Part shown: positions 1,356 to 43,053 of the stretch, piece by piece
How positions within the stretch are numbered: position 1 is the first letter of the stretch
Layout of the letters: each line of letters begins with the position of its first letter
From: Eledone cirrhosa
Taxonomy: Eukaryota
Assembly: GCA_964016885.1 (NCBI GenBank)
Contig: OZ024741.1
Location: forward strand, 315,642,001 to 315,706,000
Reading direction: 5' to 3'
Length of the DNA: 64,000 bases
Notes under the pieces: generated by a model
Database searches by the model: none
What the model was told of the DNA's origin: nothing
The model's input: the letters and a program-made list of their open reading frames with translations, nothing else
Position numbers and translations under genes: made by a program

Positions 1356-1393
1356 ACTTTTGAAAAGCAGAAGAACTGCGAAACCGGTAAAAG
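1356..1393 (+). ncRNA. Minimal type-I hammerhead-like motif, U3-A8 core variant
   Basis: TTGAAAA GCAG-aagaa-CTGC GAAA CCGG TA: perfect stem II, palindromic stem III (ACCGGT), weak stem I. Confidence 0.55.
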
Positions 1394-1699
1394 AACCAAA
1401 TAAATATATATATTTTTTATATATTTTTTTTAAAATAAGACTCCAGTTGCATTTTCGATTTCATCTTTTTTTCTTTATACTTTCACTCGTGTAGGACACC
1501 TCGGTTATTTTTTATTTTGTAAAAAACCTCACTTTCTAATATATATATATATATATATATATATATATATATATATATATATATATATATATATATATAT
1601 ATATATATATATATATATGTATATATATATATATGTATTTATATATGTATATATATATATACAATTATATATATATATATATATATATATATATATATA

Positions 1700-2345
1700 T
1701 ATGAGTTAATCGGATAATAAAGTAGGCCAATTGAGTGCGATAAAAAATATTTTCTTACTTCCAATAAAATCCCTTACACTATTTTCTTCTATAAAAAAAA
1801 CAATTTGTGACAGACTATACTGAACCGTATAAACCTAGGGCTCCACGTTTCACGGTAAAATATCACAAAACTAACCTCCATTATAACCCTTGTGTAATGT
1901 GCATTAACCCCTCTAATTCAGATATAAGTAAAATCAGTAAACATAATTTAGGCAGTATTATACGCAAATTTAAAAGCAAAATTAATGTTATAGTGTGGGA
2001 CAATACAAATGAAGTTAATTGGTTCACTAGTATTAAGCACAAAAATAGTTTTAAGTTTCTGCAGTTTGACATTGATAATTATTATCTTTCTACATCTCGC
2101 ATTATTTTATATAAGGCATTTATCCTTGCTATGAAATTTATTGATCTTAATAGACACGAAGTCAACATTGTCATTGCAACTAGGCATAATATTATAGAAT
2201 TTGAGGGGTCTCTTTGAACCAGAACTAATCGTCCTAATAATTTTGACATACACGACGTTGCACAAATTACAGACTTAGTAGGTATATTTTTATTATATAA
2301 ATTTAACCAGGTGGATTATACAGAGATGATGTTCCTTCATTGTTA
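1700..2345 (+). pseudogene. Penelope-like RT fragment (LYRDD-type family)
   Basis: ORF 1807-2217 has INPSNSDISKISK..W..T.EV.WF..FLQFDIDNYY. Past a stop it continues as DVAQITDLVGIF..GGLYRDD. Homologous to 33.3-35, 41.5-42 and 44-45.8 kb. Confidence 0.8.
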
Positions 2346-2852
2346 AATACCCTTTTTTAGTGTATATTTATCTCTCACTATATATATATGTGTGTGAGAG
2401 AGAGAGAGAGAGAGAGAGGGGGGGGTGTATCTTCATTAACGATTCCGTTAACTTCTACATTAATTCTACTCGTTGTTCTCCCTCTTCATATACTAAATAA
2501 ATTATTTATAATTTGTTCGTAATATATCTTTTAAAATATTTTATATTTTGTACTACTTAAAGAACCGGTAAAAAATCTTTAATTCATTTTAGTTTTCTAC
2601 CCGACTGTAAATACATTTTTTCCCATAATGCCATAATCTATTTGTGTGCTCACATATTAGATATTATATTGTTTTTTTTTTGTTTTTTTTATTTGTTTTT
2701 TTCTTTCAAATATCCAATAACGTTTTTTCATAATGTCAGGAATAACCTTTCATTGTGTTACAGAATAGAGTGAAAATGCATCCATCACTCACGAATACTT
2801 CATTCCTTTTCATTCTACGACACCTAAAGATGTATGGTAATAATAATAATAA

Positions 2853-3000
2853 TGGTTTCTGATTTAGGCACAAGGCAAACAATTTTGGCGGAGGGGAAAA
2901 TCGATTAAATCAACCTCAGTGCATTACTGGTACTTTATTTTATCAACCCTGTGAGGATGAAAGGCAAAGTTAACTTCGGGGGGCTTTGAAATCAGAACAT
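2853..3000 (-). mobile_element. SINE family A, 5'-truncated
   Basis: GGCACAAGG..ACTGGTACTTTATTTTATCAACCC..GGATGAAAGGCAAAGTTAAC matches 544-729. Confidence 0.8.
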
Positions 3001-3639
3001 AATAATACTTAGCTAAGTTCAATATATATTTTTTCCTATTTCATTATATTCTTGTAATGCAAGTATTGAAATATTTATTGTGTGTTAAATGAATTAAGAA
3101 ATCTAGTCTTTGTTCTTAAAAAGTGAAGGACTCCGAGCTGTTGTTACGCATTCTTCTAGGAGAACGAAACTCTGAAGTGAAATCTGCGGTTTACATCTTT
3201 ACTAGTCATCTTGCTTAGACTTGTCATCAGATAATAATCACTGAGGTTTAGGGAGTATTGATCGTGTTGTACACGCGATTGCCATTATAATCCTATGATG
3301 TACAGATGTCTCTTTCATCTGTCATTTTATCTGTTAAAAGTTATATGCTGATGGGGGAGTGGTGATGTCTGCAGACCTAACCAGTTAGAAGCACACAATT
3401 ACTCTACACATAGGTGGCAGGGATCTTAACATCGTTGCTGTGTCTTCCTGAGATAGGTTTTAACTTCGGTGGAGGTTCTTGCGTTTTAAGCAACCTATTG
3501 GGGAGAGCACTGAGCTCTCGGTATGTTGGGAAGGTGCTGAAAAAGGTGCACTGAACAATGCCTGTCACATCAACACTGGTGAGTTCCCAGCAGATAACTA
3601 TGGTTCATGCCAGCAGGAGCAGACAAAATGATAAATATG

Positions 3640-39769: not shown

Positions 39770-40070
39770 GAGTAAATAATTTGGGCGATACCGAAAATGT
39801 CTTCAAAAGACGGCTATATGTGCGCACACTTATTTAAGACGCCAAACTCATCTACATCAACGACGCTTGCAAAAGACTCTTGGGATTAAAACAGAAGAAT
39901 ATTGACTATAAAATATCATGGTGAATTGTACAATCGGCTAGACCCTATTAGGGCGAATGATTAGGATGAAAACTTTGCTCAAAAGAAGTGCTTGAAATCC
40001 TGACTAGAAAGGACCTATTAAACTCCAGATACGACCCAATCTTCAATTACTAACATAGATCTTTAAAAAG
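39770..40070 (+). pseudogene. PLE GIY-YIG endonuclease fragment
   Basis: GDTENVFKRR..STTLAK..LKQKNIDYKISW*IVQSARPY..KLCSKEVLEIL..LLNSR. Confidence 0.65.
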
Positions 40071-40877
40071 ATTTTTTTAATTCAATCCATGTTAGCACAT
40101 ATATTCACACTTAGTAACTAATCGCATAAATACATCTTAACTATACAACACCAAACGGCAGTCTGCAAACCTCAATATATGGTGATATATGTCGAACATT
40201 GACGATATACAAATTTTACTGTTATACACACACCACCGCTTATACATTCCGGAGCACATAAATATCATTACAACTTAGTTAATATTCACACCGATAGATT
40301 AACTTCAAGGTAATATAATCGCCTGCTCCTTAACCTTATTCTCCACACACACACACACACACTCACACACTCACACACTAACACATCTAAGGTAAACTAC
40401 AACACATGTACTACCGGATAATACGACAATGCATGATTTAATCCTATAACCTCTACACTTATAGCTAATGTAAATCCCAAACGTACACACATACCTTCTT
40501 TTCTTGCTCCTTCATAAAATTATTTCTTATCAGTCATATCTCTGTATATATCTAATCTCCAGCAGGACACCGCTTTCACAGTATCACAAAGCGACATGGA
40601 GAGGCCTATAGGAAGTGTTATCATTCTTCCACAGTTCAAAGCCCATAATTTCTCTTAATCTTAGTACTGATCTTTAGGCCTTCCTATTCTATACAATCGC
40701 TCACTACCTATGTTTCATTTTGTACATTAGTTAAATATCCTATCCCTATATACTTACGATATATACATACATATATATATATATATATATATATATATAT
40801 ATATATATATATATATATATATATATATATATATATATATATATATATATATATATATATATATATATACATGACGG

Positions 40878-41480
40878 CTAGTCTGCTGATATGCGAATCT
40901 GGCTGATCAGTGGATTTGCTAATATGCAGATTTGTCTGATCAGCCAGTCTACTGATTTGCAAATCAGGCCGATCAGTACTGTGTATTTTTGAAAATAGCA
41001 TATATTTTCACTACCTCTGAGAGTTTGGCAGGTGAACAGTGAGCTGTACTGATGACGGGTGATACCCATAAACGTTAGTGTCTGCAGTTCTGTCGCATGC
41101 CAACATAAGAGCAAGAATGAAGTGTTCATTCTACTGACATGGCTATAAAATTGAGCCTTGTTTGCATAATTGCAAACGAATCGAATGTTATTATCAATAT
41201 TCGAAAAACTCAGATTACATTTATTGTATTCAGCCATGTAGAGCAAAATTTTCTTATTTATTTGAATTTAGCAAAGCCGGCCATTTATCGCTCGTATACA
41301 GGAAACTGACTGGCCAGTCTGCTGATATGCAAATCTGGCTGATCAGTGGATTTGCTAATATGCATATCTGACTGATCAGCCAGTCTGCTAATATGCAAAT
41401 CATGCCGATCAGTCACTGTGTATTTTTGAATATAGCATAAATTTTCACTAGCTCTGAGAGTTTGGCAGGTGAACAGTGAG
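40878..41480 (+). repeat. 1.4 copies of a ~437-bp unit with internal ~32-bp subrepeats and a degenerate hammerhead (family R3)
   Basis: 40880-41043 is repeated at 41316-41480. CTGATGA C-GGGT-gat-ACCC-A TAAA CG TT at 41049-41077. Confidence 0.7.
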
Positions 41481-42000
41481 GGAGATGTTTTTAACCAGGT
41501 TATTGGTGATGTTTCTAGGATGGTTAGAGCGGCGGTGGATGTAGTGAAGATTGTCGTTTGGTTTCCTGTATGGGTAGTACAGATCATTTTCGAGGTTGAG
41601 GGTAACGCCAGAAAATTGACTCGGGTTAGGGACGTTTGTCGGGTGATTTAAAATCCCCAGTCCCGAAAGAAGTTAATTAGTTGTTTACGGACCCGTCTAT
41701 ACTACTGGGGTTGTACCCTTTCAGGGTAAGGAACCCATCGTCTCGGTTCAATCCCCCACCGAATGCAGGAAACATTTCGGTGAGATTATGTAGTAGGAAT
41801 AATCCTATAAGATCGGTCACCTCGGCGAGTCGGTCACGGCCATACTGACGTCGAAGGGGGAGTCGGGAGCTCTCTTTATACACTTGGAGTTATCGAAAAG
41901 GAGGACTGTCTTCCTGGCGTAGAGAATGATGTTTCTCCATGTCAGGAAGACAGTCCTACACTTTCGGGCCACATCTGGGACCTCCAAGATAACAACATAA
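41480..42000 (-). pseudogene. PLE RT fragment, LYRDD-type
   Basis: RKTVLLFDNSK..FDVSM, AEVTDLIGLFLLHNLTEMFPAFGGGLNRDDGFL, and LDLYYPYRKPNDNLHYIH..SNHP. Confidence 0.8.
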
Positions 42001-42958
42001 CATACCACCTTACTTGGATCTTACTGTCCAGGGCTAACTCCTACACGGGAGGACGCCGTCCGTGTAACTTATGCTCGGGGGAAACATTACAAATGCTGTT
42101 TACGAAGGACCAACTACTAAACAAAAAAGACGAACTTGTAACGCATGTAAACACCGATTGCGTAGGACTTACCTCGCTCTCAAACCCCCTCATGACCCCT
42201 CATGACCCGGGTGCGTAGACAATGGCTGCAACATCCTTCTTTTCCCCACTTGCCGAACAAGATAGCGGATACCCCATAATACATAGGTAGATGTATTTCT
42301 TTTCTTTTTCTTTTTCTTTTTCTTTTTCTTTTTCTTTTTCTTTTTCTTTTTCTTTTTCTTTTTCTTTTTTTTTCTTTTTCTTTTTCTTTTTCTTTTTCTT
42401 TTTCTTTTTATTTTTCTTTTTATTTTATTCTTTCCTTTTTCTATTCTTATCACTTCCTTCCACTCCCTCTCCTCTTCCTTTTCCCTTTTCCTCTTTCGAC
42501 TACCCCAAGGCAGCCCATCGGGGTTCTGTAGCCTCAGTACCCTCACCCCAGTAAATTATATATAGTATTGGCCGAAAACGCAATACCAGCTAAAATTATA
42601 GCAACTGCTTTAAACTCTAGAGATTTTTTTTGTTAATATTACTATTGAATTTTATTATTTTTTTTTTTTTTTTTATTTATTAACTTTTAATCTCAATATA
42701 TTAACTATTTCTATAACGTCCCACTCTCTGTATCCTTTTTTCGCCTGCTTCCTAACTAGCCTAATTTCATACACACTCTTTAGAATTTGGTGTATAGAAT
42801 TCACTTTGAATGCTTGACCGGCTACATTCACTCTCGCACTGTTCTACAAGCAAGTTCAGCCACCCTACCCCCACCAAACGCCATGAAAGTTTTAATTGTG
42901 TTTACAAGAAATTTTGACCAATCCTTTTGACAACTATAATCTTCCCATATAAGGAATT

Positions 42959-43053
42959 ACCCCTTGAAAAGTTCGGCTATTTAATACCACACTAAAAATT
43001 CTAATTTAGTCCAGAAATAGCCGTCGAAACGGCTTGAGCTCTGCCGTCGGGGT
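42959..43053 (+). ncRNA. Type-I hammerhead, U3-A8 variant (complete form of family X)
   Basis: ACCCC TTGAAAA G.TCGGCTATTT..AAATAGCCGTC GAAA CGGC-ttgagctct-GCCG TC GGGGT. All three stems are present. Confidence 0.8.

Follow-up and report, generated by a model that had tools for sequence, protein, structure and literature searches.

U3-A8 hammerhead cores as a family state of Penelope-like elements and short repeats in the genome of Eledone cirrhosa

Why should five hammerhead motifs with different stems, all in one stretch of the Eledone cirrhosa genome, share the same departure from the usual C3-G8 core? The stretch, referred to here as the window, comprises 64,000 nucleotides (positions 315,642,001 to 315,706,000 of contig OZ024741.1, assembly GCA_964016885.1) and is a microsatellite-rich part of a 3.0-Gb genome. 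An earlier examination of the letters alone, the sequence-only reading, had reported five motifs with U3-A8 in place of C3-G8, and had taken the repeated double change as functional covariation rather than decay. We consider it probable that all five are type I hammerhead motifs, three of them in the 3' ends of Penelope-like elements and two in short repeats (one likely a retrozyme), and that the U3-A8 pair is inherited within each family, the swap likely having arisen at least twice.

All five motifs are indeed present with the same U3-A8 core, and the coordinates first reported for them prove to be motif edges. They are named here after the position of residue 3, namely 1360, 6206, 33236 and 42964 on the forward strand and 8416 on the reverse strand (Table 1). 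Residues 3 and 8 can form a Watson-Crick pair in five of five, and the other core residues (U4-G5-A6-N7-A8-A9, G12-A13-A14, A15.1-U16.1 and H17) are kept in every case. The predicted GUC cleavage site, by comparison, holds only for 33236 and 42964, but not for 1360, 6206 and 8416, which have GUA. A pattern for the class formed by these last three finds 3 matches in the window, and 200 block shuffles average 0.0; together with the reversed-pattern genome control given below, this excludes a chance origin of the motifs. An Rfam scan of the whole window returned no hammerhead of any kind at gathering score. The only trace of the five is a match to HH9 at 33219-33294 (21.9 bits versus a gathering score of 52, E 0.71), and the C3-G8 motifs at 19020 and 19545 likewise fall below gathering (31.7 versus 34).

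Sequence comparison assigns the five motifs to five repeat families, F1 to F5 in their order along the window: F1, F3 and F5 are identified as 3' ends of Penelope-like elements, F4 as a 320-nt tandem retrozyme-like unit, and F2 as a short repeat. A terminal-repeat position 3' of an open reading frame (ORF) with reverse transcriptase (RT) and GIY-YIG endonuclease was seen for F1, F3 and F5. In F1, window positions 1-540 and 836-1560 are 84-89% identical to sequence that lies 3' of the RT/GIY-YIG ORF in loci L192 and L271, and the L271 ORF scores above the Pfam cut-off for both RVT_1 and GIY-YIG. F1 copies show graded 5' truncation. At five loci the endonuclease end lies 1.0-1.45 kb upstream of an F1 motif, four of these being U3-A8 and one C3·A8, the latter a locus that had been fetched as a non-U3 copy. 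The L273 ORF of F3 is 51% identical to that of F1. No consistent coding partner of F2 emerged from 51 upstream regions of F2 or F3 type, five of which carry Penelope-like fragments, of unrelated types. The F4 unit occurs both singly and in tandem. To illustrate, L026 has three motifs 320 nt apart, and 8 of 14 same-strand neighbours in stored loci are spaced by 319-326 nt. No autonomous partner of F4 was found, and a link between F4 and F5 through a shared 11-nt word was rejected, there being no blastn match between the F4 unit and the F5 element at E 1.

The F5 insertion in the window consists of an inverted RT piece (41478-41936) followed by a direct endonuclease end and 3' untranslated region (41956-43057). 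Locus L288 contains a whole F5 element with a U3-A8 motif on each side, the two lying 3,058 nt from each other. L321 (G000:C1:91472000-91481999) and L325:3879-6236 hold young elements of the F5 group, also U3-A8. Their tandem units of 3,542 nt are nearly identical, and an RT-endonuclease ORF of 786 codons is open in them. The 786-aa product goes unrecognised by Pfam; its identity was assigned because of its motifs and its tblastn matches to other Penelope-like fragments. It has a Cys linker different from that of F1, and F5 may belong to the Nematis clade, our trees being built without reference sequences. F1 and F3 may belong to the Neptune clade; the linker of the F1 ORF, C-x4-C-x2-C, is as described for Neptune in PMC8557442.

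At L276:2950-4760, seven tandem 299-nt units carry a shortened F5-type U3-A8 motif, with six segments matching the F5 terminal repeat at 80% identity; these units are likely a retrozyme derived from an F5 element. Further U3-A8 motifs with different helices occur at L273:6183(+), L156, L048 and L290, the one at L156 being 2,233 nt 3' of an endonuclease fragment that ends at 1334 on the + strand. U3-A8 families therefore number more than the five represented in the window.

If U3-A8 were the outcome of decay in individual copies, single changes should be at least as frequent as the double change. For F1 to F3, a genome pattern with a free N8 and the helix III that these families share gave 19,860 matches, compared with 110 for the reversed pattern. 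Within this class, 452 matches have a base other than U at position 3 (reversed control, 97) and 160 have U3 but a base other than A at position 8 (reversed control, 10). About 19,250 of the 19,860 (97%) are U3-A8, with C3·A8 and U3·G8 each below 1%. Finer splits of the genome searches refer to the first 100 matches listed, which sample the start of the assembly; the rows for F1 to F3 were counted by eye. Among the first 100 listed of the 452 without U3 there are 33 C3·A8, of which 8 lie in a single local cluster, together with 1 C3·U8 and otherwise A3 or G3, with no C3-G8 in the plain register; among the first 100 listed of the 160 without A8, 48 are U3·G8. The F4 pattern has 239 matches, and U3-A8 is the state of 98 among the first 100 listed. 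A control family with C3-G8 has 11,286 C3 copies and 225 non-C3 copies, the first 100 listed of the latter comprising 72 U3·G8, 19 A3, 8 G3 and 1 U3-A8. Because of the counts in this control family and in the F1-F3 class, decay can be said to yield singles at about 1% and doubles almost never. The sequence-only reading had named singles as common as doubles as the result that would speak for decay. On counting, singles are far rarer than doubles in both the F1-F3 class and F4, so its claim that U3-A8 is not the product of decay, copy by copy, is borne out. A U3-A8 copy of the control family at L224 was entertained as covariation inside a C3-G8 family and rejected; it is the one case in the first 100 non-C3 copies listed and fits a chance double.

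A less selective view was obtained from 80 evenly spaced 10-kb stretches (800 kb) of the four largest contigs, scanned with a fold-based descriptor that replaced an earlier strict census (11 motifs in 800 kb); both use thresholds of our own and both miss decayed copies. The descriptor passed 48 motifs, of which 37 are C3-G8, 5 are U3-A8 (one probably a chance match) and 6 are other, with no U3·G8 and no C3·A8 in the 800 kb. Its reversed control gave 14 matches, including 1 C3-G8 and no U3-A8. That CUGANGA searches miss such motifs, as had been pointed out, is confirmed by the 5 of 48, all of them invisible to searches of this kind. Separately, two tandem motifs at L057:1961 and 2627 combine well-paired helices with an A3·G8 core, which may be a family state or a single mutant that was duplicated.

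The number of origins was approached through the linked RTs. A tree of 24 RT pieces has three deep groups; the origin test used the 12 rows with an assignable hammerhead state, the other 12 being left out. In the 12-row tree, F5 groups with C3-G8 elements at 100/100, and a single clade of U3-A8-linked rows is rejected (p-AU, the P value of the approximately unbiased test, 1.1e-6). Since these rows do not form one clade and C3-G8 is the usual state, the swap likely arose at least twice, as judged from the tree, and not five times.

Several results weigh against this reading. The RT tree has long branches, its state labels were assigned by adjacency and it holds no reference elements, and two of the six U3-A8 rows (L029 and L280) were labelled via DNA identity to a family. 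Counts within a family reflect one master state rather than many independent selections. In PMC4209133, a minimal Penelope hammerhead had no activity as a monomer and low activity as a dimer. The F5 group has 3,596 matches, of which 480 have a base other than U at position 3; the first 100 of these listed comprise 94 C3·A8, 3 A3, 2 G3 and 1 C3-G8, so that a lineage with a C3·A8 mismatch reached about 450 copies. Helix I of 5-6 bp is present in 27 of 37 stored C3·A8 copies, compared with 37 of 43 U3-A8 copies, and in L344 (1175-4768) a near-complete ORF has a C3·A8 motif on either side. In F2, counted by eye, an extra base precedes U4 in 57 of 84 copies, and 12 of the 84 combine U with G8. The pairing is therefore not strictly enforced, as the C3·A8 lineage of F5 makes plain. 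Functional covariation, as first proposed, thus stands in part: the double change is not decay, but it does not represent five independent compensations.

The C3·A8 copies of F5 have the same register and helices as the U3-A8 copies, and the ORFs linked to them are mostly 70-95% identical to the young F5 ORF. Other examples of this subfamily, besides L344, are L327, L329 and L311. DNA and protein trees both place the C3·A8 copies between the young and the window-type U3-A8 groups of F5. Rooting with six outgroup ORFs did not resolve the base of the F5 group, and union of the two U3-A8 groups in one clade is rejected at the borderline (p-AU 0.048). This pattern suggests either that amplification went on despite a slow or silent ribozyme, or that the long F5 helices tolerate the mismatch. 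A bolder and decidedly tentative proposal is that an autonomous Penelope-like lineage retrotransposed some 450 times with a C3·A8 core and twice gave rise to U3-A8 descendants. If true, C3·A8 would be a natural, long-lived half-way state between C3-G8 and U3-A8, and efficient self-cleavage would not be required for the element to move. Within F2, in turn, the core has switched once between the two pairs. The 84 copies of this family comprise 16 with C and G8, none with C and A8, 51 with U and A8, the 12 with U and G8, and 5 others; the C/G8 copies form one clade among 52 stored copies (support 0.98). When F2 insertion copies are read without the inserted base, their cores become A·G and G·A mismatches.

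Three other accounts of the U3-A8 state have to be considered beside inheritance within families. AT-biased decay of C3-G8 copies after insertion would suit a window that is mostly 30-39% GC, both changes being transitions towards A/T. It is refuted by the single and double counts, with the double state in 97% of the F1-F3 class and 98 of the first 100 F4 matches listed, and with a C3-G8 family in which decay gives singles (72 of the first 100 non-C3 copies listed) but a double only once in that 100; we give it practically no credence. Also very improbable, if less extremely so, is a single swap behind all U3-A8 motifs, the 3' module having moved between Penelope-like lineages by template switching. 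Such modules could move independently of the RT tree, and F1, F2 and F3 do share helix III and have similar helix II sequences. Nevertheless, the helices and flanks of F4 and F5 are unlike those of F1 to F3, the two units do not match each other in the blastn comparison described above, and monophyly of the linked RTs is rejected.

The remaining account deserves more attention, even though we regard it as unlikely. It holds that catalytic selection is weak or absent and that core states drift in master elements and are carried along by retrotransposition, with U3-A8 tolerated rather than required. It is favoured by an amplified, ORF-linked C3·A8 lineage that lies between two U3-A8 groups in both DNA and protein trees, and by the F2 subfamilies with an inserted base, U·G cores and a proximal helix I of 1-2 bp. 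Moreover, Naiad elements proliferate without canonical hammerheads, according to PMC8557442. Against drift stand the other core residues and the three helices, which are kept across unrelated families, and the even genome sample, which is bimodal (37 C3-G8 and 5 U3-A8, with neither C3·A8 nor U3·G8). Similarly, C after helix I goes with G8 in all 16 F2 copies that have it, never with A8, and U3-A8 is also the state of the youngest F5 group, whose helix II is better paired.

The five motifs differ in condition. Contiguous helix I pairs number 2 at 1360, 1 at 6206, 2 at 8416, 4 at 33236 and 5 at 42964; the 10.1-11.1 pair is G-C at 1360, 33236 and 42964, with A·A at 6206 and U·U at 8416. By family, G10.1-C11.1 is found in 50 of 54 stored F1 copies and also in F4 and F5, F2 has A-U, and F3 has U·U or U-A. 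The 2 pairs of helix I at 1360 compare with 3-4 pairs in 46 of the 54 stored F1 copies. Helix pairs have been lost from the copies at 1360, 6206 and 8416, which are probably inactive. Of the two motifs whose stems had been called intact, 33236 can form all three helices, with 4, 4 and 4 contiguous pairs, but helix II of 42964 has one G-C pair followed by a 2x1 internal loop. This loop is the state of the 42964 subfamily (30 of 33 scored copies). Helix sequences differ between families yet still pair.

The motif at 42964 is alone among the five in having the hammerhead three-way junction as its lowest-energy fold (z -2.1; 8 of 200 shuffles equally low), while the lowest-energy fold of 33236 buries U3-U4-G5, its core-open fold being 2.9 kcal/mol higher. 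Perfect palindromes of 6 nt in F1 to F3 and 12 nt in F4 form helix III, with self-duplex energies of -8.3 and -20.1 kcal/mol, respectively; F5 has instead a 5-bp helix III hairpin with a 6-nt palindrome in its loop. In-silico C3-G8 versions of six motifs widen the gap to the core-open fold by 0.9-2.7 kcal/mol, and folding energy as the cause of the swap was rejected, this difference being too small and model-dependent.

Single changes at hammerhead position 3 or 8 cut activity strongly. In master elements, U3 would pair with A8 in place of C3-G8, and the active fold would be kept. RNA of such elements is predicted to cleave itself after GUA or GUC, that is, after N17, and cleavage may trim element transcripts or release unit-length RNA. 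The motifs of F1 to F3 would act as dimers, two copies pairing via the 6-nt palindromic helix III. F5 could fold as a monomer, F4 less readily so, the latter perhaps acting as monomer or dimer. PMC3088659 states that natural U3-A8 keeps the 3-8 pair and calls it active in vitro, citing earlier work, and minimal Penelope hammerheads have been proposed to trim precursor RNA (PMC4209133).

The swap is already published for Penelope-like elements (Cervera and De la Peña 2014, PMC4209133; also Perreault 2011, PMC3088659). The Cercyon Penelope-like elements of Schistosoma mansoni have the U3-A8 variant (Cervera and De la Peña 2014). Like the hammerheads described in that paper, those reported here are type I motifs in terminal repeats, with short helix I, palindromic helix III and U3-A8, and occur mostly as single truncated copies, with nearby copies on opposite strands. 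They differ in number (about 1,300 matches there, more than 22,000 exact pattern matches here), in that no extra base separates 9 from 10.1 in F1, F4 and F5, and in the long helices III of F4 and F5; the available part of the paper does not mention an amplified C3·A8 lineage. Perreault et al. (2011) report the same change from C3-G8 to U3-A8. They also note 2-bp helix II and U10.1·U11.1 mismatches, features seen here in F2 and F3. What appears as 'several examples' in their paper is here the state of whole retroelement families. F4 resembles the non-LTR (long terminal repeat) retrozymes of Cervera and De la Peña 2020 (PMC7229834) and Li, Clavereau and Pollet 2026 (10.64898/2026.07.22.740005) in that its unit is non-coding, is about 320 nt long, carries one type I hammerhead and occurs both singly and as tandem repeats. 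Unlike them it has a U3-A8 core. The resemblance of the L276 units to the F5 terminal repeat is as expected if retrozymes derive from Penelope-like elements.

What is added to the known swap is thus host and scale, about a tenth of descriptor-passing hammerheads in the even sample being overlooked by CUGANGA searches. The only surprise is that a related lineage spread to about 450 copies with a mismatched pair. A literature search, which covered titles and the starts of abstracts, was not phrased for C3·A8 exactly and left most subscription journals outside its coverage, found no description of an amplified C3·A8 lineage or of a base inserted before U4. The 42964 family amounts to a natural allelic series on one scaffold: U3-A8 both young and old, about 450 copies of C3·A8, and C3-G8 as a rare revertant. 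The role of the hammerhead in Penelope-like elements is described as unclear (PMC8557442), and these natural F5 alleles could show directly whether cleavage rate tracks transposition success.

Other repeat families contribute at least 10 hammerhead motifs of the ordinary C3-G8 kind to the window, which also contains decayed coding fragments of further Penelope-like families and tandem repeats. All features are listed in Table 1.

Table 1. Hammerhead motifs, the repeats that carry them and other features of the window (coordinates count from its first letter)
Feature	Position	Strand	Details or basis
F1 Penelope-like element 3' untranslated end, 5'-truncated, then (TA)n tract	1..1537	+	alignment to L192, L271
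F1 minimal type I hammerhead motif	1356..1393	+	U3 1360, A8 1365, 4-bp helix II, G12 1380, 6-nt palindromic helix III, GUA, N17 1389
F2 short repeat, ~260-310 nt common to copies, no consistent ORF partner	6080..6340	+	blastn versus stored loci
F2 hammerhead-like motif	6198..6252	+	U3 6206, G12 6226, GUA, N17 6235; 1-bp proximal helix I plus distal helix; A·A 10.1-11.1
F3 Penelope-like element 3' end	8251..8798	-	84% over 573 nt to stretch directly 3' of L273 endonuclease ORF
F3 minimal hammerhead motif	8382..8420	-	U3 8416, G12 8395, GUA, N17 8386; 2-bp helix I; U·U 10.1-11.1
Second F4 fragment, without 5' half of hammerhead core	30447..30694	+	
F4 partial copy of 320-nt non-coding tandem unit, retrozyme-like	33098..33320	+	95.5% identical to unit repeated in L026
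F4 type I hammerhead motif	33232..33276	+	U3 33236, G12 33257, 12-nt palindromic helix III, GUC, N17 33272; inside longer closing stem
F5 5'-truncated Penelope-like insertion, then (TA)n	41478..43057	+	85-90% identical to full element in L288
F5 type I hammerhead motif	42959..43053	+	U3 42964, long helix II, 2x1 loop after G10.1-C11.1, G12 43026, 5-bp helix III, GUC, N17 43048, 5-bp helix I
C3-G8 hammerhead motifs	15686, 17929, 18307, 19020, 19545, 36183, 46709, 47070, 47231, 48255	-, -, +, -, +, +, +, -, +, - (in order)	several are inverted pairs
Probable further C3-G8 motifs	near 54535 and 60690	+, +	
Decayed RT and GIY-YIG fragments, three other Penelope-like families	44321-45742, 48587-50157, 52193-54342, 60879-62608	-, +, +, + (in order)	
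Tandem repeat	55313-56883		period ~635 nt
Tandem repeat	11092-11626		period ~107 nt

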